A stretch of 62,426 nt of DNA, counting the filler, from Dugesia japonica (Eukaryota): assembly GCA_001938525.1 (NCBI GenBank). It is 6 parts of 6 records of this genome, joined end to end, with 100 filler letters (N's around TTAATTAATTAA, not from the genome) between each part and the next. Parts side by side here need not be neighbours in the genome. Positions count along the whole stretch, not along the records: positions 20,031 to 31,010 come from MQRL01202033.1; 5 more parts are not named here. One strand, written 5' to 3'. A program made the position numbers and the translations under genes. The first letter of the stretch is position 1. Every line of letters starts with the position of its first letter. Below, one piece after another: positions 14,044-62,366 of the stretch. Below the pieces are notes generated by a model. It made no database searches. It saw nothing but the letters and a program-made list of their open reading frames with translations, and was not told the origin of the DNA.

Positions 14044-15891
14044 TAAGAAAAAATCCAACCCTATGATCACCTTTATCCCACCGCATTAGATGAGGCCTTC
14101 AGTAAACTACATCAATTTTCATAAATATAAAGAGTTTAGATTTCTCGAGAAAACTTCCCGGGTAACAATACTGCTCGTTAAACATTAATCGACGCAATTC
14201 GATTATTTCTGATAGACAGATCATTGCAATTCTCTCAGTTGTTCTTTATTGAACCTTAATAACAGCATCTTGGCATTCACTGGTGGATTCGCTTTCCTCC
14301 GATCACTCTCATCGAACACGAATCAAAGAATTTCAGTTTTGTTTTGTGGATTTGCTTCTCTCCAATTATTCTCATTACCTCCATTAAAGTATCTCGGTAC
14401 CTCAGTCATCTCATACAAAGGGAGCACGATTCATCCCAGTCGGGGCACTCAACATCATTGGATTTTATATAATAAAATTTAAAAATTATGGCATTTGAAG
14501 ATGTACATATTTAAAATTTACTTTCGGGGTTTGTGTAGATAGCCTTGGATCGTTTCCACAATATTTTTGCTTGCTCCGATATAGGGTAATTCAATTAACT
14601 ATTTATTATCTTAACCAAGTTGAAGTAGGAAAAACTTTATTCAAATTTAATTTTCGCAAAAATAATAAAAATTAAGCAGATACAAAAGTGTTGTTTTCTC
14701 TTCGGGTAGCTGGTTTTAATTGAGAATGTTGAGACGACAAAACCGGCTCCCGATTAGCCAACTAATGATACATAACTTTGTGGGAATCCGATTTCCCGAT
14801 TGGTGAAGTTGGTGTGCATTCCTCTCTTCCTAATTTTTAACAATTTTGGTGCACACCAAATTTTTGGACTAAACTTTATTTTTCAGTCACCTCGCGTGAC
14901 CTCTGAATCCTTTCAGTTATCTCCATGCGACTTCCTTGTCTGGTTTAAGGTGAATCACGGATGCTGTTATTAAATTTGAACTTAATTCACCCTAACCAGA
15001 CAATGAATGGACCAAATTATATCTCTAATTAAGAGATAATTAAATAATATTAAACGCTGAAAAACGTTATTATAGTAATGAAATTGGGTCGCAGAGACCC
15101 TTTTAATAACTTATTGTATATTATTTTTATTATTTAATTTTTATTGTCTTTCTTTGCATCTACTTTTCATTTTTTACCACCGAAATTGGGTCTTCTACGC
15201 CCGATTTTCATTTTCTCGATAGTTTCAAAATCCGTCATAATGATTATAATAATAATAATTACATAATAATANNNNNNNNNNNNNNNNNNNNNNNNNNNNN
15301 NNNNNTGATAATATTTTCGGGTCCAGCTCATCAATTTTGTGTCTACTCTTCATTATTTTACACATTTTACTATTCTTTATTCCTTCGACAAAATTTGTGT
15401 TCTAGCCAAACAATTATAATTAAAATTATTATTCTTATTATTGTNNNNNNNNNNNNNNNNNNNNNNNNNNNNNNNNNNNNNNNNNNNNNNNNNNNNNNNN
15501 NNNNNNNNNNNNNNNNNNNNNNNNNNNNNNNNNNNNNNNNNNNNNNNNNNNNNNNNNNNNNNNNNNNNNNNNNNNNNNNNNNNNNNNNNNNNNNNNNNNN
15601 NNNNNNNNNNNNCTATAGTTAATTGAATTATTTTACCAATCCCTCTGATTTTTTTATTACTCGAATAATTTCTTAAATCGTGAATGTCTTCATATTTGAT
15701 TGAAATATCATTTAATCAATTCAAAATTCCTCAATTATACTAAAGTGTAAATTTCAGGAAGCATTGCATTAAATAAAATTATTATAAGCATAATTCATGA
15801 AAAGAGGACCACTAGAAATCAATATCAAATCCTTCAATTTACGAAAATTTCAGTATAAAACTAACTGTAAATTCACAACATTTAATAAATA

Positions 15892-17415
15892 ATGCATATC
15901 TTTTTATTGACAGTTTTACTGGTAATATATCAGTTAAATGAAATACAAACAATTGTGATGACAAACCAAATCAATGACGTTTTGAAATCCACCGTCAATA
16001 ACATTTACCAAAATAAAGATGTGAATAACATTGACAACTATAGAAATAATAATTCCAGCCTGAATAGTAATTCCGAAAATTTCAATTCCACAAACAATAA
16101 TAATTTCAAAAGTTCCAATTCAACAAACAATATTAATTCCAGAATGGTCAATTCAACAGACAATAATTATTCCAAAAATATAAATTCAACAGATAATCTT
16201 AATTCTAAAATAGTCAATCCAATTGACAATAATAATTCCAAAAGTGTAAATTTAACAGACAATATTAATTCCAAAATAGTCAATTCAAGAAGCAATATTG
16301 ATTTCAAAAGTTCCAATTCAACAGATAATCTTAATTCTAAAATAGTTAATTCAATTGATAATAATAATTCCAAAAGTTTAAATTTAACCAACAATATTAA
16401 TTCCAAAATTTACAATTCAACAGATAATATTAATTCCATAATGTTCAATTCAACAGACAATATATATTCCAAAAATATAAATTCAACAGGTAATAATAAT
16501 TCTAAAATAGTCAATTCAATTGAAAATAATAATTCAAAAAGTGTAAATTTAACAAACAATATTGATTCCAAAAGTTCTAATACAACAGATAATATTAAAT
16601 CTAAAATAGTCAATCCAATTGACAATAATAATTCCAAAAGTGTAAATTTAACAAACAATAATTATTCCAAAATAGTCAATTCAACAGATAATATTAATTC
16701 TAAAAAAGTCAATTCAATTGACAATAATAATTCCAAAAGTTCCAATTCAACAAACAATATTAATTCCAAAATTTACAATTCGACAGATAATATTAATTCC
16801 AGAATGGTCAATTCAACAGACAAGAATTATTCCAAAAATATAAATTCAACAGATAATCTTAATTCTAAAATAGTTAATTCAATTGATAATAATAATTCCA
16901 AAAGTGTAAATTTAACAAACAATATTGATTCCAAAAGTTCTAATACAACAGATAATATTAATTCTAATTCCAAAAATCCTTATTCCATGGACAATAATAA
17001 TACTAAAAACTTAAATTCTAAAGTCAAAGTTAATTGCACAAATTTCAATTTCAAAGACAATAAAACTTCTATTTCAAAACACGACGATAATTCTAAAAAT
17101 TTGAATTCGAAACACAAAAATAATTTCTTAAATAGCACTTCTAAGGATAAAGATAATTCCAAAGACAAAAATACCTCAAAAATCCTTAATTCTATCAACA
17201 ATATTATGACTAAAAATATCAAGTCTTTAAGCAATTATAATTCCAAAAATCTTAAATCCAAAGATAAAAAGAATTCCAAAAACCTAAATTCCAAGGGCAT
17301 TAATAATACTAAAATTTTCAAGTCTATAGTTAAAAATAGGTGTTTCAATTTCAAACACGACAATAATTACAAGTTCCTGTATTTGGCAATCAAATTGAAA
17401 TTAAACCAAAAATAA
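15892..17415 (+). CDS. Secreted Asn/Ser-rich tandem-repeat (mucin-like) glycoprotein, 507 aa, intronless
   Basis: Hydrophobic signal peptide (MHIFLLTVLLVIYQL); roughly 27 copies of an 11-aa unit (NSKIVNSTDNI-like) with many NxS/T sequons; basic C-terminus; TATAAAA about 37 nt upstream and AATAAA at the stop. The frame stays open for 1.5 kb in very AT-rich DNA. Confidence 0.75.
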   Translation: MHIFLLTVLLVIYQLNEIQTIVMTNQINDVLKSTVNNIYQNKDVNNIDNYRNNNSSLNSNSENFNSTNNNNFKSSNSTNNINSRMVNSTDNNYSKNINSTDNLNSKIVNPIDNNNSKSVNLTDNINSKIVNSRSNIDFKSSNSTDNLNSKIVNSIDNNNSKSLNLTNNINSKIYNSTDNINSIMFNSTDNIYSKNINSTGNNNSKIVNSIENNNSKSVNLTNNIDSKSSNTTDNIKSKIVNPIDNNNSKSVNLTNNNYSKIVNSTDNINSKKVNSIDNNNSKSSNSTNNINSKIYNSTDNINSRMVNSTDKNYSKNINSTDNLNSKIVNSIDNNNSKSVNLTNNIDSKSSNTTDNINSNSKNPYSMDNNNTKNLNSKVKVNCTNFNFKDNKTSISKHDDNSKNLNSKHKNNFLNSTSKDKDNSKDKNTSKILNSINNIMTKNIKSLSNYNSKNLKSKDKKNSKNLNSKGINNTKIFKSIVKNRCFNFKHDNNYKFLYLAIKLKLNQK

Positions 17416-20030: not shown

Positions 20031-20639
20031 ATATATATATATATATATTTATAAACTATATAGTCGATCTATTTAAAAAAATCAAAGATTTACTTTTACA
20101 AAATATGTAATTCAATACTAGATTTCTTTACAAAACTTTATTTTATACACGTCAAGATTTTTAACATTTTTGTTGTGGATTTCAGAAGGTCCAAACAATT
20201 TTCGGTTTTAAAAGAAAAGGTGATCAACTAAAATTTTGATCACTATTTATACAATTACGACATGTATGATTTTAATACAAAATTTTACAAGATAAATAAA
20301 TTTACATAAATATTTCCGTTGGTTACATAAAATATCATAAAAATTCCATTATTACAGATAAATTATATATAAAAATTTTCCATTAGTTATTTATTAATCG
20401 ATAATTTCAGTAATTTACAAATTATATATAATTGTTTGTTGATTATTCATGACTTCAATAAATAATTGAGTTGATTGATTGCTTGAATTGATTGATTGAC
20501 TGAGTTGGTTGATTGGGATGCTGGACGTTCTGATTGTTATTTGCTCATACTTGTTTTGTATATTACTTGTGTATATTGTGTATGTATGTGAATGTCAAAT
20601 AGCTTTAACTTTGTTAATTGATTTTAATTTTTTTCAACA
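20031..20639 (-). repeat. LTR-like repeat in minus orientation (inverted copy of 30244-31010), truncated at an (AT)n tract at the contig end
   Basis: 20031-20370 is the exact reverse complement of 30671-31010. 20467-20636 matches 30246-30416 with few substitutions. The minus strand begins TGTTGA at 20639. Confidence 0.85.
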
Positions 20640-20641
20640 TA

Positions 20642-20734
20642 ATGAAGAAAATATTATACAAACAGCATGGTGGCTTCCTCGCTGCATTACTACCTATTGC
20701 ATTGGCTGCATTAGGTCTAACAAATTTTGCATAG
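20642..20734 (+). pseudogene. C-terminal part of a Polinton/adintovirus pX-like virion peptide
   Basis: MKKILYKQHGGFLAALLPIALAALGLTNFA*: basic stretch, then a GG|F adenain-type cleavage site and a hydrophobic tail. Lies directly upstream of a Polinton integrase. Confidence 0.6.
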
Positions 20735-20821
20735 GCATTATATATATAATTTGATATAAGCAATGGAAAATTTAGAATAATTAACCTATAATTAATCTAC
20801 AATTTGCATCAAATTGTTGTA

Positions 20822-21618
20822 ATGGACAAAACCGAGATAATGTGGACAGATCCAAAAAATCCAGCAGGATTCAAAGGAGTGGGAAAGTTATGGAAAGCAA
20901 CACAAAATTCGAAAGAACAAGGCACAAAAGTGACTATTTGGTCAACTAGCGTATAGTCGAAACAAACCAATGTTCAAAAGATCTCCAACAAGAGCGTATA
21001 AAACATTTGGTATTGACGATTTATGACAAATAGATTTGATGGAAATGATACCTTATTAAAAAATTAATAGAGGTTACAAGTACATTTTAACATGTATCGA
21101 CGTGTTTAGCTGATTTTAATCGAATATTGAAAGATGCATTGAAAAAGTACTTTGTGCATACTGGAAATAAAACATGGATACATGTGTTACCAAAAATAAT
21201 TCATAGCTGTAATCATACAAGTCATAATGGATTAAATGGAGCCAGACCTGTAGATGTATCATCTGAAAATTCAAAGAAATTATGGTTATTGAAACAAAAA
21301 CCGAATGTAATTAAAAAACCAAAATATAAAGTTGGTGATCATTCACCATTCATCAAGAATTTTGATAGTAATTGGAGTGATGAAGTGTTTCAAATATCGA
21401 AAATCAATACCAAACAGAATCNNNNNATGTATGTGATTAAAGACTATGAAGATAATATCATTCAAGGAAAATTCTATGAACAAGAATTACAAGTAATTCC
21501 ACCACCAATAGTATTTAGAATAGAAAGGATTATAAAATCAAAGAAAACAAAAGATGATAAACAATTATATGTAAAATGGCATGGATACGAAAAACTTACT
21601 TGGATATCAACATCTTAA
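20822..21618 (+). pseudogene. Polinton/Maverick retroviral-like integrase with C-terminal chromodomain, internally deleted
   Basis: WTDPKNPAGFKGVGKLWK; DDL*QIDLMEM..NRGYKYILTCIDVFS joined directly to NRILKDAL..YF..TGNKTWIHVLPKII; KPKYKVGD; NWSDEVFQI; IQGKFYEQELQ; chromodomain FRIERIIK..LYVKWHGY..TWI. Confidence 0.85.
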
Positions 21619-21644
21619 ATAGTAAATTCAACAAAGAAGAAAAT

Positions 21645-21710
21645 ATGAGTAAAACGAATAATTTCTATACACTATTACCGAGTAATAGTTGTCCACTTAT
21701 TTATCCGGAG
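21645..21710 (+). pseudogene. N-terminal 22 codons of a Polinton minor capsid (penton) protein, fused in frame to the glycoprotein
   Basis: MSKTNNFYTLLPSNSCPLIYPE resembles the FYxTLPSNS..xxxPxN start of Polinton pentons and follows the integrase. Confidence 0.55.
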
Positions 21711-23365
21711 AGTATGCAGAGAGAATGTATTGTTAAATATTCGGAGGAAGTGTTCTATTGTGATAGTTCTCAGGTAGTACCGTTAGTACCAAGTTGGTCA
21801 CCAGAAGCAGTAAATATATCAGCTGAAGATATCGATAAAACGTTTGAAAACAAAGAAATAATAGTACGCGAAAAAGTTAAATTAGAAGCGAGAATTGGAG
21901 TGAAAGTAAGACAATCAAAAGATATAGTCGGATGGGAATCCGGAGGAGGATGGTGCAAATGAGGTAAATACTATCTATGGGGGAAAAAAGGAGTGATTTA
22001 GTAGTAAGACGGATGTATTATGTAGAATTGAGGAAATTTAAAGCTTCATTCGATTCAGTTACCGGAAAAATGATGACTCATCCTTTTTGCAATTTACAAA
22101 ATTTTAATTGTGATACCGGAAAATCTATGTTAACATACAAAGTAAACCCACATGAATGTGCCCTGACAAAACTGAAAACGTTAAAAATGTATTCCATCTC
22201 GGGAAAAAGATTCGCTGAGAACTTGGCAAAAGAAACAAGAGATCAAAAGAGAGAATTAACAGTAATCCAAGAGAAAGCAACTCCTACAATATTTGTAACG
22301 AATTCTTCTAAAGATCTTATGAGATTTATTGACAAAGGAGAAACAATCAAATGTGCAGTAGCAGTAAAGAAAACCAACTATAACGGATTATATATATCTA
22401 CTGAACTTATTAAAGCCTCTAAAGATCAAGTAGATAAATTAGACATCAAACTAGCTTCATATTTTAATAATAAACTTGATTTTGCATACCATAATTTAAT
22501 ATATCAAATGGAAAAATTATATGATGAAACAATATCAAGAGATTGTAAAGTGAATAGAGAATTACTGCGCACAAAAATGGCATTAGCTTCCACTAATCTA
22601 GATTTAATGACTCCACTATTGTTCGAGGAAACGGGAACTTTTAGGAGAATCATGGGTGAAGCATTATTAACCTTTAAATGTAAAATAGCAAAGGTTACGT
22701 TACCAGATCACCCAAAATGTACAAATGAATTGCCGGTAATACATAACAATAAAAAGGTTTTCTTATTACCTATGACACGAATTTTAACTGATGAAAATTA
22801 TAAACCAAAGGTAATCAACAAGTGTAGTAATGTTATAGATCCACTATACAAAATAAATGATGATATTTGGATCACAGCCTCAGATCGTAAAACAGCGAAA
22901 AAGCCTGCTATATTAGAAATGACGGAACTACAGAGAAAAATGATATTTGATAGACAAGACAATATGGAAAATGCTGGTATATATACTCAAGAAGATATAG
23001 AGAAAGCCAGAAAACATGTCTTGTTTCCTATAGAAAGAGAAAAGATAATATCAATTATGATTGACAGAATTAATAAAGGAAGCCAAGGAGATGATATTAA
23101 TTTTGAGTCGCTATTGCATGTAAATCACTACAAAAGAGCCATGCAAGGTTTTATTGATAAATTTTTAGGCAAAGCACAAGCAATCGGTGATATATTTTCG
23201 TTTTTTCTAATAATATACTATGTATCAATTTTATTAAAATTAGCCTGCCATCAATTAATATCATTAAAACAATTACATTCAGTATTTGGCGCTACACGAA
23301 AATTAGCAGCATGCATATGTACATTTATTGCAAAACATTTAATCATGCAAAAANNACCACGATAA
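21711..23365 (+). pseudogene. env: Class III (herpesvirus gB / chuvirus-like) envelope glycoprotein, N-terminally truncated
   Basis: Cys pattern and motifs recalled from chuvirus-type glycoproteins: YFNNKLDF, central helix LYDETISRDCKVNRELL, GEALLTFKC, KCTNELPV..LPMTRIL, CSNVIDPLYKI..W, GIYTQEDIE..HVLFPIER; C-terminal hydrophobic/TM segments. One stop and a frameshift near 21960. Confidence 0.8.
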
Positions 23366-23435
23366 AATCAGCAAACTAGAAAGACAAAATCAAACATACA
23401 CAATTGATCTATCGAACAGAGATGAGAATACATAA

Positions 23436-24257
23436 TTGAACAATTACAATAATAAACCTTATCAATCAGAAACCGATAAACTTAACGAATTAAAATCAAA
23501 CCTTGAAAATGAAAAAGTAATAAGATATCCTGCACCACAAAAATCACACAAGATATATGTAATAAATGGAGACACTCCTAGACCTACCATAATAATATCA
23601 ATACATGGATATAACATACCTTCATTAATAGACACTGAAGAAGCATGCTCAATAATTAAAGAGGTATTTCTCAACAAAAAACCACAAGAGAATCTCGATA
23701 CGAGACTGTCAGAGGAATTAAAATCATTCACGGGTCACAAATTACCTATAAAAGGGATAATAGACTGCAATATTACTATAGAAAATGAAAATATACAACA
23801 ATCATTCCGAGTTGTAGATCAAGGGGTACAAGATTGCATTTTGGGAATGGATTTATTATCAAAATTGACAGGATACGTTATAGATTTACAAAATAATAAA
23901 TTATCAAAATCAGCGCCCGTAAATAATGAAAAAGCAAATAACGATTTATATCTGAAGTCCAACGCAAAAATAGAATATTCATGCAAATGTATAATGCCTG
24001 TAAAATTAGGGTTCCGTAGTGAAAATATTTATTTTTTCGAACCAAATAATCAATTAGAGAAAAAATTCAATATATCAATAGTACCCAGATGTTTTGTACC
24101 AAATGAGGGAAACATGCCCATAAGAATTGCTAATTATAATAATCAAGACGTTAATCTTCTTCCAGGTATGAAATTAGGAAACCTTTATGTAAAAAACGAG
24201 GATTGTGAAATAAACAAAATTACAATTAATGATAGTAAAAGAAACACTAATCTATGA
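23436..24257 (+). pseudogene. Retroviral-type aspartic protease plus dUTPase-like linker domain
   Basis: SLIDTEEACSII (DTG decayed to DTE), LKSFTGHKLPIKG, DCILGMDLL; then IRIANYNNQDVNLLPGMKLG. Confidence 0.8.
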
Positions 24258-25760
24258 CAAAATCATACCTAAGTAAACAAAGTTTTACGATAAAACCAAA
24301 ATAACCAATAGTAATCTAACAGCGCGCCAACGACAAAAATTACAAGCAGTAATAGATAAATTTGAAGATGTTTAAGCAAAACATGAATTTCATATGGATG
24401 AAGCAGATTTTATACAACATGCTATTGACACAGGTAATGCTAAACCAATTAAACAAAGGCCATATGTGGTACCATATAAATTGAGAGAAGAAGTTGAGCG
24501 ACAAAGAAAAGAATTAAAAGACAATGGAATTATAGTACAAAGCTTCTCTCCATGGGCATCACCAGTAGTACCAGTAAAGAAAAAAGATGGAGAAATCAGA
24601 ATGTGTGTAGACTATAGAAAATTAAATGAAGTCACCAAGAAAGATACTCACCCTTTCCCGAAAATACAGGAGCAATTCAATAAATTAAGTAAAGCATTAT
24701 GGTTTGCAATATTCGATGTCAACATAGGCTTTTATGGTCTGAAAGTATTGTTACAAGATAGATAAAAAACTGCATTCGTAACAAAAGACGGTTTATACGA
24801 ATTTACAAGAATGCCATTTGGTTTAATGAACGCAACAGCTTCTTTCCAGAGATTAATGAACACAGTATTGATAGATGTGGAACATGTAATAGTGTATATG
24901 GACGATATTCTGATCGCATCAGAATCATTTGAGCAACATTTGATAAACAAAGAAAACATGATGTCCAGATTACAAAAGGCAATTATAAAACTGAAACCAA
25001 CAAAATGTAAATGGGCGGAGGAACAGGTATTATTTTTAGGTCATATTGTCTCATCAAAGGTTTTGCAACCAAATCCAGAGAAGAAAGACGCAGTAAAAAA
25101 ATTTCCAATACCAAAAGCAGTACAACAGCTACAAAGTTATAACGGATTAGTTGGTTACTATCGTCGATTTATAAAAGATTTTGCCAAAATATCTGCTCCA
25201 TTAGTAGAATTAACAAAAGGATTAAAAACAAAAGGAGAAAGTAAGAATGTGATGATCACCGAAAAAATTGATGAAAGCTCATCAAAATTATAAAAATTAT
25301 GGAGAAATAATCAACAGAAAGCCTTCGAAATGTTAAAAGAAAAATTAATAACCGCATCGTTATTGAGATATCCAGATTTTGGCAAACCATTTATAATCAT
25401 GACAGATGCAAGTGGATATGTCGTTGGAGCAGTTCTCGGACAAGAGGAAGAGAAAAATAAAGATTATGTAATCGCATACGCAAGTAAAATGTTAAAAGGA
25501 GCAGAAACTAGATACTCGACAATTGAAAAGGAGTGCTATGCAATAATATACGGATTGAAACAATTTCGACCATTCATTTATGGAACAGAAGTCCCTATAT
25601 GAACGGATAATAACCCACTTGAAGGCATATGGAAAAAGAAGGATACATCCAGCTGGATACTAAAATGAGCTATGAAAATCCAAGATATGAATATAAAAAT
25701 TAAATATAAACCTGGAAGAGCTAACATAATGCTGATGCATTATCGAGAATTCCTAATATA
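24258..25760 (+). pseudogene. pol: Ty3/gypsy reverse transcriptase and RNase H
   Basis: SPWASPVVPV, RMCVDYRKLN, MPFGLMNA, YMDDIL, FLGHIV, GYYRRFI; RH TDASGYVVGAVL, EKECYAI, ADALSR. Several stops and frameshifts. Confidence 0.95.
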
Positions 25761-25775
25761 AAAGAAGTAGAAACA

Positions 25776-27050
25776 ATGGAACTAATGGCTATAATAACCG
25801 AAGGTATAAACGATAAANCTTTCTCAGATGAACAAAGAAAGGATAAAATCATCAAATCAATACGAAATAATCTCAATGAAAATCCAAAATATAAAATATA
25901 CAAGGATCTACTTGTGTATGATAATATGGAAAACTATTTATGGGTTGTCCCTGATCCATTAAAGCAGAAGTTACTTCTCCAATATCACGATGGTGCTCTT
26001 GGTGGGCATTTGTCAAGTAGAAAAAAGCATCTAGAATTTTACAAAAATATTATTGGCAAAACTTAAAGTAAGATGTAAAACAGTGGTGTAAAACTTGTTC
26101 AATATGCGCAACCAGAAAGAACACTGGAACCAAAACAAAAGTACCACTTCATCCAATGCCAGTACCAAGTTCACCAATTCAAATATGTGCTATGGATTTC
26201 TTAAGCAAACTACTCACTACAATAAAAGGCAATAAACATATTTGGGTATTTAGCCATTACTTTACAAAATGGGCTGAAGCATTCCCCACCAAAGATGAAT
26301 TAGCCGAAACAGTTGCAAAACTATTAGTGGAAAAGATTGTTTTTAAATACGGAGCACCCAAAAAATTACTATCAGACAGAGATAAAAATTTCTTAAGTAA
26401 AAAAGTTAAGAGTCAACGAAATGTTTAATATTCAAAAAATAAATACTTCAGCGTATCACCCACAGACAGACGGTCTTGTGGAAAGATTTAATAGTATACT
26501 ATGCAACAGACTATCAGTATTTGTCAACAAAAATCAAAATGATTGGGATTTATTTATCAAACCAGCACTATTTGCTCACAATACAACAGAAAACGAAGCA
26601 ACCGGATATTCACCATTCTACTTAATGTACCTGAGAGAAAATCACAATTCGGTAGACATTACATTTGAGCCTATTGTATCACAATACATGGACAATCCGG
26701 ATTATGTCACGAAAATGCAGGAAGGATTACAGAAAGTGTATAAACAAGCTGGGTTGAGAGTAAAATTCAAACAAGAACAATACAAAGATTATTATGACAA
26801 AAATGCGAAACCACGCCAATTTAAAGTTGGAGATAAAGTGCGAATAAAGACTCCAAATTCTAAAAAGGTTCAACAAAAAAACTGGCCAGACCATTCAAAG
26901 GACCTTTTGAAGTAGTGAAAGTAATGGATACAAACCTACAAGTGATAAAGAACAAAAATGATGATCTTTCAGGAGTTGCAGTCAACAAGTGCAAATTAGC
27001 AGAAACAGAACCAATAACTTCAAAATCACACAAATATAATCTCAGATCAC
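25776..27050 (+). pseudogene. pol: Ty3/gypsy integrase
   Basis: HHCC (YHDGALGGHL..CKTCSIC), AMDF, LLSD, AYHPQTDGLVERFN, GPF motif and terminal YNLRS. Confidence 0.93.
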
Positions 27051-27061
27051 AATCACAAAAT

Positions 27062-28856
27062 TCATTACTGATCATGTCACTAATATTATTATCGATTATA
27101 ACAAGTTGTTCAGCAGATTTCACGTATTTATCACCTAGAAAAAACTCTTGGCCTACGGTAGAAATAGGTATATATTCACATAAATTTACATTCGAAATCC
27201 CTTCACATAAGACTTTCTATGGACCTACATTATCAGGAGAAAATAGAATTATTACAAAATAAAACCCTAATACTAACAGTTATATTGACAGACAGTGTTA
27301 ATGACATAAAAATAGAAATTCAAAATGTCCCAGATGTATTAGGAGTTGAGTTTATATATTACGACAGATTACCAATACCCTTTCTCGCATTTACAAAAAT
27401 AAGAGGTCACTCTAGAATAGACAATACCTCTTTGTTAAATAATATATCATTCTTGAAATATTCCATCTTGGCACCAGAAGATATAGACTCCATGTCAATG
27501 TTTGTAGATATTAAAACCTTACCAGATCACTACATGCTCACAGAAATAATCGAGATCAAAATTCAGAACTTCAGAGGGGAAACATTATTGAACAAAAGAG
27601 TATGCCCCAGAGAGCGAATCAAACACAACTATAAAGACACAATTGGATACGACGAGAAATTAATCCTCGGTAAGGAAGATGCATACCCAATTATCATACA
27701 AACCGGACATATGCTATATGGAAAAATATTGATTGGCTATGACTTGGGAAAGAAATTGGCCAGTCTTCATATGGATCAAAGACATATTATTGAATATAGA
27801 GATCTTGATGAAGAAAAATGGCATAAGAAACTAGTATCGAAACCTAATACAGCCAAACACCGGATAAGTACAATTTTCGAAGCAATATTGAAACCCATAA
27901 AATATTAACCTCGAATAAGGGATTTAATTTGGTCAATGAACCATACAATAACATTCACTACAAACAACAGAATTGAATGGATACGACAGGCGTATATCTA
28001 CCTTAAAGAAACGAATCAATGGGACGACACTATAAAACCAACTAAGGACTACAATTTAGATCCAAAAATGGATGTCTTAGAACCTATAACTTCTATACCA
28101 CCACGAGAAGAAATATTCCCTATGGCAGTCTATTGGCCCATAATATTAAAAGAAATTGACAAAAGTAAAATAGATATTGTCAAATCTGGGGAATCAACTC
28201 AAGCTAATATAAACCATCCAATTATAAATAAAAAGACTAAGCGATTAAATTATAATAGCGTTGATCTTGATGACGAATCTGAAACTGAAGACAATGTGTC
28301 ATCACCAAAAATATGGAAAGAGAATACTGAACCCAACACGCAGATAGAAGAAGCGGCACGCAATATCATACAAATAGATAGTGATTCTGATTTAGATGAT
28401 AGTGATGATGAATTAAATGAAAATAAAGATTCAAATTCAGACAATAATTATGAGAACCAAAGCGAAACTGAAGGACCAATATACAGAGAACAAACAAAAG
28501 AGCCACTACAGGAATTAACAACGGAGGAAGTCAGATTCTGTAAACAATATGTACCATATTATACAGATGATGAATCCAGTGAGGATGAACTTGGATTTGA
28601 CCCAGATATCGAAATACTAGATGTTAGAGAATCATCGATTGATATGTCAGACCTTGTGTACATTAACAAAAAAATGGATACCACTGTCACTATGAAAGAC
28701 ATGGCCAATGATGAGGCATATGTGACATTTGGTACTAAGAAAATAAAAATAAAACGAGTCAATGGACAATTTAAGTTTATAGTAGAAAATACCATGTATG
28801 ATAGCATGGCCTTAGAGGAAGAGGGACAAGAACTCTCGATATCAATTACAAAATGA
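27062..28856 (+). pseudogene. Post-integrase extension: signal peptide, unknown domain, DEDDh (REX4/ISG20-like) exonuclease-like domain, acidic tail
   Basis: LLIMSLILLSIITSCSA|DF is in frame with the IN end. From 27498: MFVDIK..IIEIKIQNFRGETLLNKRVCPRERI..GYDEKLI..LYGKILIGYDL..YRDL. ORFs 27219 and 27936 share a frame across one TAA. D/E-rich region at about 28260-28620. Confidence 0.6.
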
Positions 28857-28962
28857 AATTATAAAATACATAGTTGTATATTTGTGTATATATGTGTGTG
28901 TGTGTAAATGTATACAACTTTCATATCCTTTACTAGCTTCATTAATTATTTATTTTTAGAAA

Positions 28963-30200
28963 ATGGATCCCGAATCAACAGCTAGGAAAATTCATCTACA
29001 CAATAACTGTAAAATAATTTTACATGAAAAACACCGCGCCCTGAAATACCCATTAAATTACGGTTAAGATGACGTAGCCAAAATTATTTATTACCTATCC
29101 GAAGACGCTGAATGCCCATTTGTTACGAATACCCAGAACTGCCACGAATTTTGGAATGTGGCCATTATTTCTGTCTTTATTATATATTAAAAGTCTTTCT
29201 TCTTTTCAACTTACGTCTAGTCCCCTGCCCAATCTGTCGTTCCTGAAAAATAGATGCTTTTCATCCTAAACGAGTTTCTTTCCTAAACATGTCACCCTTT
29301 AAAGTTGGACAAAAACTCAATATGTTGTTAACCTTCAAAGACCCCTTCAACAACTGCACAAGAATTGCTCATCGCCTACCCTTATATTATCAAGAGGATA
29401 TTCCTGAATTTAGCGACTTAGTTGGTAAATAAAATAATGTTACCATTCAAAGAGATGTCATTTCCATCAGCCAGATACAGAATGACCTCTGTACAGCCAG
29501 AGTGACCAATTAAACGAAAAGAGACAAAGACAACATGCAGCTCCACTTAAATAGTGAATTAAGAAGATTCAATAACCTAGTCAAAATTCAAGATCGATTT
29601 GAGTTCGTCAGGAAATTCCTTAACAGTAAAAACGTTTCACAATTCAACCTGTTTCATCACCGAAATATATTGTCACCTCGGTTATACTAACAAACTGGTC
29701 GGTACCATAACCTTTTTATCAATAAGGAACAACAGGAAAAAATACTCCAATTACCAATATTAAAATTGCCCTATGAACTCATAGTAGAAGTAAAGTCCAT
29801 AGAAACAGATATTGTAAAAACTTGTCATGCAGTTTTTTACACTGGACAAAGAATTACCTCTATTACTATCGATATCATTAGTTCTAAGGTACTTGGAGGT
29901 CTACCTAAATACGTGCCCTTTTTCAAACATTATGGAGACATTTTAAAGAAAGAAAAAAGAGAAAAACAAGAATTGAAAAGAATAGCGGACAACTGTAAAA
30001 ATTTGATAGGATAGAACCAAAGATTTACAACCTCACCAGACAAAGACAACCACTTGAAATATTTTCAAAACCTACATTCCCATACCCTACATTACCAAAT
30101 ATTGAGGAAGAATTTAACCCGTGTATTTTCAACGAACCCTGTGCGAATACAATTCCTTCTGGCTTACATGATATGGAATGCTCATTCTTAACCTTGTTTC
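28963..30200 (+). pseudogene. RNF10/MAG2-like C3HC4 RING E3 ubiquitin ligase carried by the retroelement
   Basis: With a 1-nt deletion at about 29117: HLHNNCKIIL..EDAECPICYEYPELPRILECGHYFCLYYILK..VPCPICRS..KVGQKLNMLL..LY*QTGRYHNLFIN..LPYELIVEVKSIE..YGDILKKEKREKQE. Collinear with RNF10 blocks outside the RING. Confidence 0.7.
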
Positions 30201-30208
30201 TTAAACAA

Positions 30209-30239
30209 GCTGCGGGTGCATCTTTTTTCGAAGGGGGAA
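30209..30239 (+). promoter_or_regulatory. Polypurine tract with preceding GC hairpin and T-run
   Basis: GCTGCGGGTGCATC-TTTTTT-CGAAGGGGGAA lies immediately before the LTR-like repeat. Confidence 0.75.
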
Positions 30240-30243
30240 CATT

Positions 30244-31010
30244 TTTTGAGGAAAATTAAAATCAATTAACAAAATTAAAGCTATTTGACATTCACATACA
30301 TACACAATATACACAAGTAATATAAAAAACAAGTATGAGNAAATAACAATCAGAACGTCCAGCATCCCAATCAACCAACTCAATCAATCAATCAATTCAA
30401 GCAATCAATCAACTCAAAATCAATAAACTTTATCTGATCCAATTTTACCGATTGAAGCTCTATTTGATTTGATTTGATTTTAACCAAATTGACTTTGTTA
30501 AATTGATTTATCATAAAATATGTTATTTGTAAAAAAAATTTTTTATATTATTTCATTTGTAGAATTTTATATTTAATTAAGAATATTTTATTTATAAAAT
30601 TGCATATCGCATAAACAATTATTTATTGAAGTCATGAATAATTATTTACCTAAATTATCAACAAACAATTATATATAATTTATCTGTAATAATGGAATTT
30701 TTATGATATTTTATGTAACCAACGGAAATATTTATGTAAATTTATTTATCTTGTAAAATTTTGTATTAAAATCATACATGTCGTAATTGTATAAATAGTG
30801 ATCAAAATTTTAGTTGATCACCTTTTCTTTTAAAACCGAAAATTGTTTGGACCTTCTGAAATCCACAACAAAAATGTTAAAAATCTTGACGTGTATAAAA
30901 TAAAGTTTTGTAAAGAAATCTAGTATTGAATTACATATTTTGTAAAAGTAAATCTTTGATTTTTTTAAATAGATCGACTATATAGTTTATAAATATATAT
31001 ATATATATAT
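30244..31010 (+). repeat. 3' LTR (partial; the contig breaks at an (AT)n tract)
   Basis: Follows the PPT. Start TTTTGAGG aligns with TGTTGAAA of the second copy. Contains (TCAA)n and a GTGATCAA..TTGATCAC hairpin. Confidence 0.75.
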
Positions 31011-52337: not shown

Positions 52338-54450
52338 CAGAGGTCGCCAAAGTAGTCTATATAGACCCCTCAGGGGTCTATTTAATAAAAGTAGGGATCG
52401 ATCTGAGCCAAGAGGTTGAATGGGGGTCGAAGAAAACCCATTTTTAATACGCAATTCAAACATACCTAACTGCATATGTAAAATTTGTGAATGCTTTTAT
52501 AATTGACTTAATATCAGTTTCTTGTGAGAAAATAAATTAATAAACGTATATTTATTCGAGTGAATAAAGTATTTACATACCAGCGCGCAGCGGTGCCAAC
52601 TCGGCACTTCTGTCTTATGAGTCATACACATATGCGCGTTGCTCCAAATGTCACGAGCGTTGATGTAAGAAGGTAAGCATTAAGAATATTGATTAGTATA
52701 GTATACAAACTTATTTTTTACTTATTTATAGAACCCTAATTAAAAAATGGCAGCTTCAGTTTCTAAAAAGAATTTCGGTAATATTCATTGGATTATTTGA
52801 AATTTGGATTTATTTGTTCATCGATAAATGAAACAGTTCTTATATGTCTTCTATGCGAAACAAAACATTTGGAAACGAGTATATGAAACCGTCAAAAATG
52901 AAAGATCATCTTAAAATGAAAGATCATCATCATCATTTTTATCATCACTCAGATAAAAATAAATATAGAACTTGAATTTTTCAAAAAACTTAAAGAACTA
53001 TAAAACGTTTTATGAAGCAGTCTACTGAAGGAGGATTAATAGATTCGTACAAGATTTCGCTTACGGTAGCAAAGAAAGGAAAACCACACACTCTCGCTGA
53101 AGAAATTGTTATACCTGCAATTTAAGACTACATTGAGGATGTAATGACAAAAGACTCCGTTAATGTTTTCAAGTCCTTGCCATTAAGCGCAAATTCTGTT
53201 AAACGGCGTATTGACGAAATCGCAGAAGAAATATAAAATACAGTAGTTTCCGAGCTAAAAAATTGAAAGTTCTCTATTCAACTTGATGAATCTGTTTTTG
53301 GCGTTTCAACTATTTTTATGGTGTACGTGAGATATTTCAGTAAAATAAAAAGACAAGTCATTGATGAACTTTTATTTGCTAAATATCTTGAAACTGATAG
53401 AAAAGGAGTAACCATTTTTAGATGTTTACAATAATATTTAAATAAATATGATATTCCGCTTCAAAATATAATAGCAGTAGCCACAGATGGCGCATCTGCT
53501 ATGGTAGGGCGTTACCGAGGTTTTGCTACATTTCTCAAAATAAAATTGCCCGGTATACGTACTATTTATTGTGTGTTGCATAGAAACAACTTAGTGGCAA
53601 AATATCTGAGTCCAGAGTTACATAAAGCTTGTATTAAGTGTATCAATCAAATTAAAGCCCAACCTCTTAAATCAAGATTGTTTTCCAAACTCTGTGAGGA
53701 AAACGACAAGGTATTTAACCAATTACTTCTGCACACCGAAGTTATATGGTTGTCTAGACGTGTATGCTTGCCATTGCTTGTTAAGTTATTTGACTTCACG
53801 ATAGAATTTCTCAGTGAAATAAATCCTGTTCTGTGTGATGAACTCCAAAACAATAAAAACCATATTTTATATTTAGCGGAATTATTTGAAAAATTAAATG
53901 CCGTCCAAACGAAGCTGTAAGAAAAAGATGTAACAATAATTCAAGCTTGGACAATACTGTTAGGATTCCAAGTAAAATTAAATTTATTTAGATCTTTATT
54001 GCTATGTAAGGATTATCAGTATTTTTCAAACCTGCGACATTTAGAAATAAAAGAAGAAGACTTAAATATATATACAAGTCATCTTGAAAAATTAAGAGAC
54101 CATTTTAAACTGCGATTTGTTGATTTGGAAAACATTTACATCCCTGAATGGATTATTGCATCATTTTCCGCTCAAATTGAAAACCTAGATACCAACCTGC
54201 AAGATGCGTTTGCTGATTTAATATAATGCAAAAATCTGTAAAACTTTTCGAAATACCTGAGCCATTTATGCTGGCATTTCCAAGTTCCTATACGGTTAAA
54301 GCCGGTTTCAGTCACGTAAATTCAATCTTAAATAAGTTCAGAAATAAATTAAATCTGGAGTTTCGAGGAGATTTAAGATTAAAATTGACAAATTTTGAAC
54401 CCAATATAGTGAACTTTGCAAAGAAACACCAGCCACACCCATCTCATTGA
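52338..54450 (+). mobile_element. hAT Buster/Charlie-type transposon, decayed; transposase about 52747-54450
   Basis: TIR CAGAGGTCGCCAAAGT; ATAGACCCC..GGGGTCTAT palindrome; KPHTLAEE, LPLSANSVKRRI, SIQLDES, ATDGASAMVG, CVLH, LLHTEVIWLSR, FPSSY, RGDLRLKL and HPSH*. Right TIR not seen. Confidence 0.9.
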
Positions 54451-56974: not shown

Positions 56975-58156
56975 TCATAAACAATTTGAAGTATTATTCT
57001 GTAAGTTGCCTTGAATGAATTCTTGTAAGGAGATATCATATAATAATGCATTTCTTTGTAAAACTTCAACACAAGGTCCTAATAAACGCTCAAAACTAGA
57101 TCTCTCCAATATCCCAATCACAGATTTTTCCAAACAGACGACAGTTGCAGCTCGTGGTCGATTTGTCATCAATGAAAGCTCGCCAAAATATTGACCCTTT
57201 TCTAAAATAACTATTTGTTTTCTTGTATTTCCACTATCCACATATACTCCAACTTTCCCTCTTTCAATGAAATACATATGCTTTCCAACATCTCCTTGAT
57301 GGATAATGATAGAATCTTTTTCATATGTTTTCATATGAATAGCATCTGCAATATTTATCTTTTCATCATTAGTTAATGAATCAAAAAGAGGTACTGATGA
57401 TATAAAATTGACATATGTTAATCTTTTTTCATGTGCCTTTAGTATCACAATACTTTTAAACGTTTTCCTATTCATATACCAAAGGATTCCAGCAGTTCTT
57501 GCAATAACTGTTGCTGATCTTGGTGAATTATATAATAAAGAAAGTTCACCGAAAGATCCTTGATTGTTATACGTATTGATATGTTCTAAAGCATTGTATT
57601 TATTTTTAATGTAAACATCAAATATTCCCGATTGAATTACATAGAAATGATCACCAGGATCTCCTTGTTGAATAATAATATCATCAGCTTTCACTATTAA
57701 GATATTCATAGCGATAATTACATCATGAATTTCGTCATCAGCAAGTGTTTTGAAAATCGTTATTTTTGAAATAAGCCGTTTTAAGGTCTCTATTTCTGAT
57801 GACGTTTTAACATTTGTTTGGACAATTTCTCCGGAATTGTATATCTGGAAATCGTACGGATTCCAGCTTTCTGAAGAGATAGCGAATCGGCGTCTATTTG
57901 TTTTTGGCTCAAATTCAATTTCTTCTGAACTATCAATGCTCGATCTATTTTTCGAAATTGAAGTGTCCAGTTTTCTATCAAAAGCCACTGATTTTGAATT
58001 ATCTGTATTTCGATTTTCAAATAAATTATGGAAATAATTTGCCGAAAATTCTAATAGATTTGTCGGTTTGTTTTTTAATGCGTCCAATGTAAAATCTATT
58101 AATAATTCTCTAATTTCTAAATTTAATGGAAGATTTTTACAGTCCACAAATGACAT
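56975..58156 (-). CDS. PRKAR2: cAMP-dependent protein kinase regulatory subunit (RII-like), intronless, 393 aa from ATG 58156
   Basis: RIIa-type D/D domain (ELLIDFTLDALKNKPTNLLEFSANYF), inhibitor site RRFAISSE, two CNB domains (QGDPGDHFYVI..FGELSLLYNSPRSATV; YFGELSLMTNRPRAATV) and FERLLGPC. Confidence 0.92.
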   Translation of the reverse strand: MSFVDCKNLPLNLEIRELLIDFTLDALKNKPTNLLEFSANYFHNLFENRNTDNSKSVAFDRKLDTSISKNRSSIDSSEEIEFEPKTNRRRFAISSESWNPYDFQIYNSGEIVQTNVKTSSEIETLKRLISKITIFKTLADDEIHDVIIAMNILIVKADDIIIQQGDPGDHFYVIQSGIFDVYIKNKYNALEHINTYNNQGSFGELSLLYNSPRSATVIARTAGILWYMNRKTFKSIVILKAHEKRLTYVNFISSVPLFDSLTNDEKINIADAIHMKTYEKDSIIIHQGDVGKHMYFIERGKVGVYVDSGNTRKQIVILEKGQYFGELSLMTNRPRAATVVCLEKSVIGILERSSFERLLGPCVEVLQRNALLYDISLQEFIQGNLQNNTSNCL

Positions 58157-58930
58157 TAAACTATCGATTTTCAAATTGATTTCCAAAAATTTTATTTAAA
58201 AAATCAAATAATTGAAAAACAGTTATTATTCATTATATTCCCATTGATAACGTTTGGGTTATCTATACAAATTAATGCATTAAAAATAAATATTCCGCGA
58301 AAACATTGATTTATTGCATAAGAAACGCAACATATACTAGATGTGCATTTTCTAAACATTTTCATATAAAAACAATAGGTACAAGGAATATATAAGATGC
58401 GCATTAACGATTGGAAAATACGATATTTGCTTCAATAGTTTCATTAAAGATCAGATGAAATGTAAAAATTTGTTTTAACAACCAAATTAGTTAGAAAAGC
58501 ATAATTTCGATTTGGAAATTGAAATTATTTTGATGATAATCATTAAAATTAACATTTGAACTTAATTATTTTACGAAAAGGAGAATTATTATCGAATTTA
58601 TTAGTTCAATATTTTCAACACAATTTTCCATAAAACTTATTTATCACAATAATTTCAATTCTTGAGAATAGTTTTCAAACTTTTTATCTACTTTCTGCTT
58701 GAAATTTTCCACCATTTCCTATCATTCAATGAATATTTAAACAAATTTGTCTTAAAATTAAGTTAAATTAAAAAGCAATTTGTTAAAATAAACTACTTAA
58801 TTAAAAAATCACCAAACTCACAATTTTACACTAATATTAAAAGCATCATTCAAAGAAATAATGGTTTTTTTTAATTATTTATGCTTAAAAAGTTTCATAC
58901 AAATAATTTACTATCCAAANNNTTTCAAAA

Positions 58931-60149: not shown

Positions 60150-62366
60150 AAAACTTATGGAGAGTTGTGAGATTTTGAATTTAACTAACATGGCGATAAA
60201 CGCATCATTGGATTTGCTAAAAGAATTTTCCAAATTGGGGATGATGTCAAAATTTTATCATGAAGACAACAAAATTTTGTGATCTATACAAAATAAAGAA
60301 ATGCTTTAGAAATTTGGTTGCAAAGAGCTAATAATGAATAGTTTCAATGACATAAAGATTAAACATAAGATAAAATCCAGAAAAATAGAAAAAGTAGAAG
60401 ACGCATTTGAAGCAATAAAAGAGTGGGAATACATAAAAGACNAAGTAAAAACTGAAGAAATAAATGTAGTTCGTAACTACAGAGATGCAGTTTGCAGAAG
60501 TCCAGAACAAAGAAATTTCAACACGAGTCGTAATGAAGGAATACAACAGAACAGAAAAAATGAAAGACGAGAAATCTCGTGTTGGACCTGTAACAAAATA
60601 AGTCGTGTAAGCAGAAATTGTCAAGAACAACACTTAAGAAGAGACTGTATCAAAGTTAGTTGCTCAAGATGCAACAAGAAAGGTCACCACACATAGAACT
60701 GTTACACAAATATGAACAGACAGCATCTGATGAATGGATTCAAACGACAAACAAATTTGCTGCGTTTAATCAAATGAAGCTATCGTTTGCGTTTGATATG
60801 TTAATGAGACGAGATGCGAAAGAATTATGGGTGGAGAAAAAATGGAAAATGCAAAGAAGGTATTATTTTGACGAACGAGGTCTGCGAAAAATGGTTTTGT
60901 GAATCCTTTGTAATTTCAGAGACACTGGTAGATAAAATAACACTTTTGTCAAAGATCAAACAAAACCCAACTGAAAGTATCGTAATTTTGAGTTAAGAGT
61001 AAGAAAAATAGTAAACAAATTTCTTGCGAGTTAATAAACTCTAGATGAAATTGCAACAATATTTCTAATTAATGGTGTAAAAAGCGAAAAATTAAAAGAA
61101 TCCTTTGTTCTTCAACCAGAACTTACTGATATTCAAAGACGAGAATTAGCTTACATATATTCTGTTAATGTGGTAAAGTGACGAAAGATGATTATCAGTC
61201 AAAGTTTTCAAAAATGCATCCACGAATGAATACTCTTAACGATCCAAGTCAAGAAATTGGCTAATTGTTTTCAAAGAGAATCAGTATTATGAAAGTGAAA
61301 TTCAGACCCAAAGACGCGTCCAAAACAATAGTTTTTTTCAATACTCTATGAACAATATATATAGCCAATAAGCTTTATTGTAAAGCCAAAGGAAAGAATC
61401 CTCCGTGCGAAGAAGTTTTTGCACAGGGAGTATATTTCTGCTGTGGAGATACAAGACATAGAAGAATGAATTGTTCATTAAAAGATAAATGTTTAATATG
61501 TGGAAAAGAAGGTCATAATTTTCGAGATTGCGCATTAATTCGAATAAGAAATTCTTCATTTCCAGATATTATGTATTGCAGAAAAATATGTTATCTTACA
61601 ATGGTGAACAAATTGAGTATATACACGATGTTTCTTTTGACGATGATGATAAAAAAACGATAAATAACAGAGAAAATACTCCATGATGAAAGATTAATGT
61701 TTGATGGTAAGATGTTTTTAGAAGAGATATGGGAAAGAATGGAGTTTAATGCGTTACAATGAATATGATATTGAAATGTTGTGGGATTCAGGAGCAGCAA
61801 TATTAGTCATAAGTGCGGATGTGTTGAGAAGAATTGGATAACTTAATCTATCGACGTCACACATGGTTCTAGCAGGAGTGTTTTCAAAAAAAGGAGAAAA
61901 ATATATCGGAAAAACTAAACTGAAGTTACAATGGTATTGAAAGCTAAAAGATAAAGAATTAGTAATTGTTAAAAATATTTTTTCAAAGTTTATCAGAGGT
62001 ATTGATATGAAAATCACTGAAGTTGATTTTATTAACTCAAACGATAGAAAGTTATTTACCGATAATACAGAAAAAGGGAAAAATGACTTTAATACTTCAT
62101 ATAATGTAAGTGACGAAGTAATAGAAATGATAGAAACTTACAAAGATATATTCATGACATCAAAATTTGATCTTGGATATACAAAACTGATGCAACATCA
62201 TATTGAAACGACAGGACCTCCAATAATGATAAACTCGAGAAGACAGACAATGCACTTGGAAAATAAAATAGATGAATTGTTAGACAATCTTAGAAAATCA
62301 AATATTACAAGAAGTTGCAGAAGTCCGTGGAATTCCCCATTGGTAATTGTACCAGTTAGAAAATAG
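60150..62366 (+). mobile_element. Nested or decayed Ty3/gypsy fragments: two gag remnants, protease and RT start
   Basis: CWTCNK..C and CSRCNKKGH; CGDTRHRRMNC and CLICGKEGHNFRDC; LWDSGAA protease at about 61780; HHIETTGPPI..SPWNSPLVIV. Confidence 0.8.

Follow-up and report, generated by a model that had tools for sequence, protein, structure and literature searches.

A retrotransposon with env before pol

The window analysed here is a stretch of 62,426 nucleotides (approximately 25% GC) from the planarian Dugesia japonica (assembly GCA_001938525.1), composed of parts joined by N-linkers. The part at 20031-31010 (MQRL01202033.1) contains what is very probably a Ty3/gypsy long terminal repeat (LTR) retrotransposon, in a copy that is dead and has lost its 5' end. 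In this element a class III envelope gene (env) of the gB/chuvirus type stands directly before the protease (PR), reverse transcriptase (RT), RNase H (RH) and integrase (IN), and in intact members of the family these are likely all produced within a single Gag-Env-Pol polyprotein. The order of the domains is env, PR, RT, RH, IN, and the pol domains follow the order of the Ty3/gypsy class. Established observations are this arrangement, the class to which the fold of Env belongs, the decayed state of the copy and the occurrence of gag-env-pol in single open reading frames (ORFs) of natural relatives. Env before pol in one frame is a published layout, and the window copy adds one family to a described group.

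About 9 kb of the element are kept; gag and any accessory domains before env are lost. An original prediction, made from the sequence alone, had placed a gypsy-type PR-RT-RH-IN pol after an env. Pfam and tblastn matches and a structural match to Ty3 RT bear out the pol, and the domain order and colinear relatives bear out the position of env. The element runs about 4 kb beyond the end that it had been given.

The envelope gene

Env-like coding sequence occupies approximately 21711-23365 and is spread over two frames. A 5' piece of 83 codons (21711-21959), 39% identical to residues 131-209 of relative P0002, meets a stop at position 21960, and 465 aa are encoded by the main ORF. The proposed Cys-rich glycoprotein of about 550 codons is thus right in length, as the sum of the two pieces, and in its Cys content (11 in the main ORF and three in the 5' piece), but it is not a single ORF. 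Eight of the 11 main-ORF Cys, which lie in the ectodomain, are conserved in 91-100% of the aligned relatives. Several C-terminal transmembrane (TM) segments had also been proposed; a hydropathy scan gave one clear segment (Kyte-Doolittle 2.21), which is helical in the structural model.

The main ORF matches the Pfam family PF24664 (Monjiviricetes_fusion) with an E-value of 1.3e-60. An AlphaFold (AF2) model, built from a 106-sequence alignment, has a mean pLDDT of 87.4, a pTM of 0.65 and a central helix of 48 residues. All 39 of the PDB matches listed for this model are herpesvirus gB, the best with an E-value of 4.7e-4; TM-scores are 0.2-0.3, and they are low partly because the model is without the N-terminus. 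The top matches in BFVD are glycoproteins of chu-like viruses (6e-20). On this predicted structure the main ORF is a class III fusogen of the gB/chuvirus G type, as had been suggested from the sequence, and the structural comparison with class III fusogens that had been proposed as a check gave both herpesvirus gB and chu-like glycoproteins. A pattern scan of metagenome contigs for env yielded 25 pattern matches and no confirmed locus.

The pol domains

The RT is most similar in the PDB to the Ty3 RT (4ol8, 1e-70); retroviral RTs match at 1e-29 or weaker. The PR has weak matches to Pfam proteases (E 0.002-0.06) and is 34% identical to the PR of relative P0001 (2e-13). Between PR and RT lies a spacer which is conserved with relatives; it has no Pfam match, and a dUTPase-like domain was not confirmed there.

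Env and pol in single reading frames of relatives

A representative search with env found 740 proteins at E <=1e-3, of which 150 were listed; 15 of the longer ones among these listed matches were scanned for domains. The same ORF continues into a protease in 11 of the 15, into an RT in five and into an IN in four. The other four have no protease match, and three of them end no more than about 25 residues past the env match. P0153 (4844 aa) reads env-PR-RT-RH-IN with extra domains; P0001 (2099 aa) reads gag-CCHC-env-PR-PR. In some relatives, among them P0001, P0014, P0019, P0242, P0245 and P0250, CCHC or gag domains lie upstream of env. Four single-ORF relatives (P0010, P0006, P0153 and P0018) are colinear with the window over 21650-27055.

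Searching with RT-RH only (stops read as X) gave 2757 matches, 120 of them listed; these were ranked by summed score, and gene models with multiple RTs dominate. The ranking was redone by single alignment over 125 long RT-bearing proteins. Thirteen of the top 18 carry env upstream in the same ORF (ten of these from the RT-only search), and the remaining five start at or after PR and have no CCHC. The first env-less gag-pol protein is found at rank 19. The original prediction had named, as a finding that would refute it, other copies of this RT without the upstream glycoprotein; among the relatives, most of the best matches carry it. In a quickly computed tree, 49 RT-RH rows were compared; the window grouped with the env-first proteins, and all 27 env-less rows were left outside.

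Several observations weigh against a single polyprotein. The placement of the window among env-first proteins has an SH-aLRT value of only 81, from a quick search and on a long branch. P0001 and P0007 end after the proteases without an RT, so that the chain of some relatives is interrupted between these two domains. The window's own env frame stops short of PR, which is reached only across a frame break and the TAA at 23433. It should also be noted that the polyprotein is proposed from the relatives; the sequences compared include no intact copy of the window's own family. The single env-PR-RT-RH-IN polyprotein that had been predicted therefore fits the family, through its single-ORF relatives, but not the window copy, with its frame break and stop.

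Relatives carry further domains. Several aspartic-protease domains per ORF occur in P0001, P0003, P0006, P0007, P0153, P0240 and P0245; P0153 has up to seven Pfam protease stretches, and in some relatives protease domains lie after the integrase. A Bcl-2-like piece precedes env in P0004 (E 1e-3), and P0002 and P0003 have a BH2-like motif. Ankyrin is found in P0153 and P0241, a weak UBX match in P0250, and C2H2 fingers among the relatives with accessory domains. P0010, a full env-first gypsy polyprotein, is labelled at NCBI as a hypothetical protein of a Flavobacteriaceae metagenome-assembled genome; this is likely eukaryotic contamination in the bin.

The env-PR junction and decay of the copy

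The env frame breaks at an ambiguous pair (NN) at 23354-5 and terminates at a stop at 23363. It had been proposed that this frame continues past the NN into the PR ORF with a single TAA. The TAA is present, but the peptide quoted for that stretch (HDKISK...) is in another frame, and env stops before it. Env had also been described as running directly into PR, with no gag/CCHC, LTR or spacer between them. No CCHC, gag, LTR or repeat was found between the two in the window, which includes the gag or LTR that had been named as possible counter-evidence; there is, however, a linker, and the end of the env match lies about 91 codons (approximately 270 nt) from the PR active-site motif. The same distance is 67-330 codons in relatives. 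One contig from another copy (run X3) spans the junction over 23253-23473, and contigs of other copies have an indel relative to the window at the NN site. Over 21711-27262 the best frame shifts seven times, and RT-RH has in-frame stops at 24373, 24763, 25291, 25600 and 25666. The window copy is a pseudogene.

The frame break and the TAA fall exactly in the env-PR linker, as they would if gag-env and pol were separate reading units and the break were programmed, with Pol made by readthrough, frameshifting or splicing. P0001 and P0007, which stop before RT, and P0241 and P0252, which start near PR and whose longest contigs equal those of the first two in length, suggest split ORFs in some relatives. 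Such an arrangement is nevertheless unlikely: the break coincides with the assembly ambiguity at which other copies differ by an indel, this copy has many other random breaks, and the 13 of 18 closest RTs read through from env. Raw RNA reads, at low depth, gave no joint that skips env. One contig (X9) is without 22851-24926 and was considered as a splice product; its ends are not GT..AG, and it is read as a deletion variant. RNA reads at >=85% identity numbered 12, 356 and 28 in three raw runs and are mostly less than 90% alike. First mates are mostly on the plus strand, in libraries of unknown strandedness, and neither expression nor its direction follows from these reads. One Gag-Env-Pol chain in intact family members is the preferred reading.

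The 5' end and the upstream element

Upstream of env is a decayed integrase and chromodomain fragment of another, much commoner element, which to judge from its motifs is Maverick/Polinton-like. Scanning viral contigs with a pattern for this integrase gave 11 pattern matches, none confirmed. Abundance was compared as summed contig depth, which is not copy number, in four contig runs (three guessed to be DNA, one of unknown kind). In run X1 the summed depth is 147k-383k over the upstream fragment versus 12-49k over env-pol. It is similar over env, PR, RT and IN (X1: 12.6k-28k per bin; 49k over RNase H), falls about 30-fold or more past approximately 27250-27350, and is 0.25k-1.6k after 27350. 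The inverted arms of the contig have a low depth (362-2702). Loose contig ends lie behind 21706/21709, and seven reads have loose ends before 21720; these ends show where the upstream element joins, and they account for the absence of gag. Env is thus cut at its 5' end, at approximately 21710-21720, against the Maverick-like integrase fragment. Loss of gag through 5' truncation had been predicted, and it is supported by the loose ends and by the relatives with gag and CCHC upstream of env.

gB-like fusogens occur in nematode Mavericks. Env adjoins the Maverick-like fragment at approximately 21710, and the inverted repeats at the contig ends could pass as terminal inverted repeats (TIRs); env and pol might then be neighbours by nesting or misassembly, for example with env as the fusogen of the upstream element. 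This is highly improbable. Depth is roughly tenfold higher over the integrase fragment than over env, whereas the depth of env matches that of pol, and at 21706-21709 copies of the upstream element continue into different sequence. Gypsy polyproteins are the best-matching relatives of env, and the inverted arms, with their low depth, are unlike the Maverick-like part; the colinear single-ORF relatives largely refute this alternative. A reading of the inverted contig ends as Maverick TIRs was set aside, since their depth is low and a purine run precedes the right arm. Env and pol are treated as parts of one gypsy element.

Comparison with known elements

The text of PMC6431247 describes planarian Burro (Burro/GYPSM1 giant gypsy) elements, in which one polyprotein includes env, in frame, with gag before it and pol after it. 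Burro is >30 kb with an ORF of approximately 4,900 aa; its env is related to mononegavirus-type fusion glycoproteins, its accessory domains include MATH, BIR, BCL2 and ankyrin, and a dUTPase-like domain lies between PR and RT. The env-before-PR order and the single polyprotein are the same as in the relatives found here (13 of the 18 closest RTs), compared by description and not by sequence, and the Bcl-2-like, ankyrin and UBX pieces of these relatives echo the Burro accessory domains.

The text of PMC13524379 reports gB-type GAG-ENV-POL Ty3/gypsy "ancient errantiviruses" in Nematoda, Bryozoa and Platyhelminthes, six of them from Schmidtea mediterranea. The window shares with this group the Ty3/gypsy pol PR-RT-RH-IN, an env of the HSV/gB type (HSV, herpes simplex virus), and the position of env upstream of pol within 2 kb (approximately 270 nt here). 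Of the group's other traits (gag upstream, LTRs and a tRNA primer site), the window is without gag, as its 5' end is lost, and only its 3' end has an LTR-like repeat. An exact 14-residue peptide of the window env occurs once in supplementary file 2 of that paper, in Smed_errantivirus_3 (Platyhelminthes C1a). By-eye count, 80 of 136 ungapped positions are identical, which makes this the closest published env among those compared; 59% identity indicates a sister family and not the same family. The paper covers intact elements only and treats their parts as ORFs; "polyprotein", "fused" and "single ORF" do not occur in the portion of its text that was searched. It also cites Sacco et al. 2022 for a flipped env-pol order in nematode endogenous retroviruses (NERV). 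A possibly undescribed virus lineage, as the original prediction had it, does not hold, because the two papers already describe GAG-ENV-POL elements of planarians and other flatworms, nematodes and bryozoans.

Chuvirus/Jingchuvirales G, herpesvirus gB and the chuvirus glycoproteins of BEL/Pao elements share the ectodomain fold and Pfam family of the window env. They are at best approximately 20-29% identical to it, as free-standing genes of about 650 aa. BEL/Pao elements with a chuvirus glycoprotein differ in their type of RT: the window RT is Ty3-like, and the RT search returned Ty3/gypsy-type proteins. A NERV with a continuous gag-env-pro-pol ORF, restricted to nematodes, has reportedly been described (Sacco et al. 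2022, J Gen Virol 103:1739).

Features of the element and of the window

Table 1. Features of the element and its flanks (positions in the window)
Feature	Position	Strand	Basis
Right-end repeat in inverted copy; likely the same family's second LTR-like copy	20031..20644	-	Repeat match
Decayed integrase and chromodomain fragment of another, much commoner element; adjoins truncated env	20840..21709	+	Chromo 3.6e-5, below the Pfam cut-off; depth; loose ends
Env 5' piece; N-terminus and signal peptide missing; one stop; frame differs from main ORF	21711..21989	+	P0002 identity; tblastn with relatives; loose ends before 21720
Main env ORF, predicted class III fusogen of gB/chuvirus G type	21968..23365	+	PF24664; AF2; PDB; BFVD
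Predicted env TM anchor	23192..23248	+	Hydropathy; model helix
Env-PR linker; frame break at NN 23354-5; stop 23433	23356..23435	+	Sequence; junction-spanning contig of another copy
Aspartic protease, degenerate active-site motif at 23625, then spacer where Burro has a dUTPase-like domain	23436..24257	+	Weak Pfam; P0001 PR match
RT and RNase H, Ty3/gypsy type; several stops	24301..25725	+	Pfam; relatives; PDB
Integrase: H2C2, core and C-terminal part; frameshifted	25716..27055	+	Pfam; relatives
Signal-peptide-like hydrophobic stretch, in frame with the IN end	27065..27121	+	Kyte-Doolittle 2.03; position as post-IN signal of relatives
Low-copy accessory ORF with one stop and an acidic C-terminal half	27168..28856	+	ORF scan
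Decayed C3HC4 RING-finger remnant	29115..29246	+	E 0.002-0.004, below curated cut-offs
Polypurine-tract-like run	30230..30239	+	Sequence
Likely 3' LTR, cut by contig end	30240..31010	+	After purine run; inverted second copy at other contig end

Evidence for LTRs in the window is confined to the 3' end, with the polypurine-tract-like run and the LTR-like repeat; the 5' end is lost. The repeats at the two contig ends match in inverted orientation, 342 nt being 100% identical and a further 179 nt 95.5% identical. The low-copy accessory ORF has no Pfam or PDB match. Its Atlas matches are RNase_T/DEDD exonuclease and arenavirus NP families at 0.82-0.86, the first at 0.86; a DEDD-exonuclease fold is a lead only, since these values are below 0.9 and have no Pfam or PDB support. 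A single-sequence fold of this ORF (pLDDT 38) was unusable.

Elsewhere the window contains a single-ORF gene for a type II regulatory subunit of protein kinase A, with RIIa and cNMP-binding domains (56975-58195, minus strand). A 508-aa Asn/Ser-rich ORF (15889-17415, plus strand) has a hydrophobic N-terminus and repeats a 33-nt (11-aa) unit about 30 times; it has no Pfam match. A further gypsy-like pre-RT fragment (61941-62366, plus strand) is 27% identical to P0010. The ORF at 53435-53920 (plus strand) resembles a fragment of a hAT/ZBED transposase; it has no Pfam match at 0.01.

A possible route through the membrane

Internal signal sequences direct a growing chain into the endoplasmic reticulum (ER), and TM segments stop its transfer. 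A hydrophobic signal-like stretch lies before the first conserved env motif in all 14 relatives checked, and one strong TM closes the env ectodomain in most of them. Under the proposed scheme Gag would be made in the cytosol; the internal signal just before the env ectodomain would then lead Env into the ER, where signal peptidase would cleave the signal. Transfer would halt at the env TM, and Pol would be synthesised in the cytosol as a tail of Env, from which the element's own protease would free it. Gag, Env and Pol would be brought to one membrane, from which an enveloped particle could bud. A second module of signal, ectodomain and TM, present after IN in most long relatives, may give rise to another surface protein. 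According to the text of PMC13524379, two TMs flank some gB-type ectodomains, which fits an internal signal. One point tells against the scheme: the topology requires an odd number of passes after the ectodomain, and a weaker hydrophobic helix follows the one strong TM in at least one relative (P0014). Particle formation and fusion by these elements are putative.

A membrane module after integrase

The second module is found after IN in 15 of 17 clade proteins with tails of at least 200 aa, versus none of 40 other gypsy proteins. These are drawn from 20 clade proteins with an IN core, three with tails <200 aa being left out, and from 91 other gypsy proteins, of which 51 with short tails were left out; the clade members are related, so that the cases are not independent, and the controls include many gene models that are concatenated. 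The carriers are P0232, P0235-P0237, P0239, P0241, P0242, P0245, P0250, P0252, P0253, P0006, P0010, P0018 and P0153. Their post-IN ectodomains are 124-388 aa long and form subgroups linked mostly by weak matches. In P0249 an Ig domain follows the post-IN signal (1.5e-5). A fibronectin-III reading was also considered: five of 15 ectodomains have LxPxTxY, a motif of this fold. It was rejected, with no Pfam support (two tested) and no Atlas match (one tested).

The window keeps only the signal-like stretch; this is followed by a low-copy region without a TM, the RING remnant, the purine run and the LTR-like repeat. A profile of the relatives' post-IN ectodomains scored at best 2.4 bits against the window 3' region (shuffle maximum 6.8), and no likeness was detected. 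The module is thus established for the relatives but not for the window copy. No description of it was found in the literature covered, including the text of PMC6431247, where none is mentioned for Burro, and that of PMC13524379; most subscription journals, and the figures and supplementary files 3-6 of PMC13524379, lie outside this coverage. Rotifer LTR elements with DEDDy-exonuclease and TM ORF3s after pol are reported in PMC5408684.

Two questions concern the env-first group as a whole: by what route cytosolic Gag and Pol are made when the same chain holds a lumenal fusogen, and whether the elements move between cells. One tentative reading, which we hold as a possibility and not as the likelier outcome, is that gypsy elements with env inside the polyprotein are enveloped viruses whose entry relies on two glycoproteins, both cut from one polyprotein by flavivirus-style processing. 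The internal class III fusogen would act with the fast-evolving post-IN type I membrane protein (Ig-like in P0249) as its attachment or receptor-binding partner. The second membrane module that the relatives conserve after IN offers a concrete way to put entry to the test.

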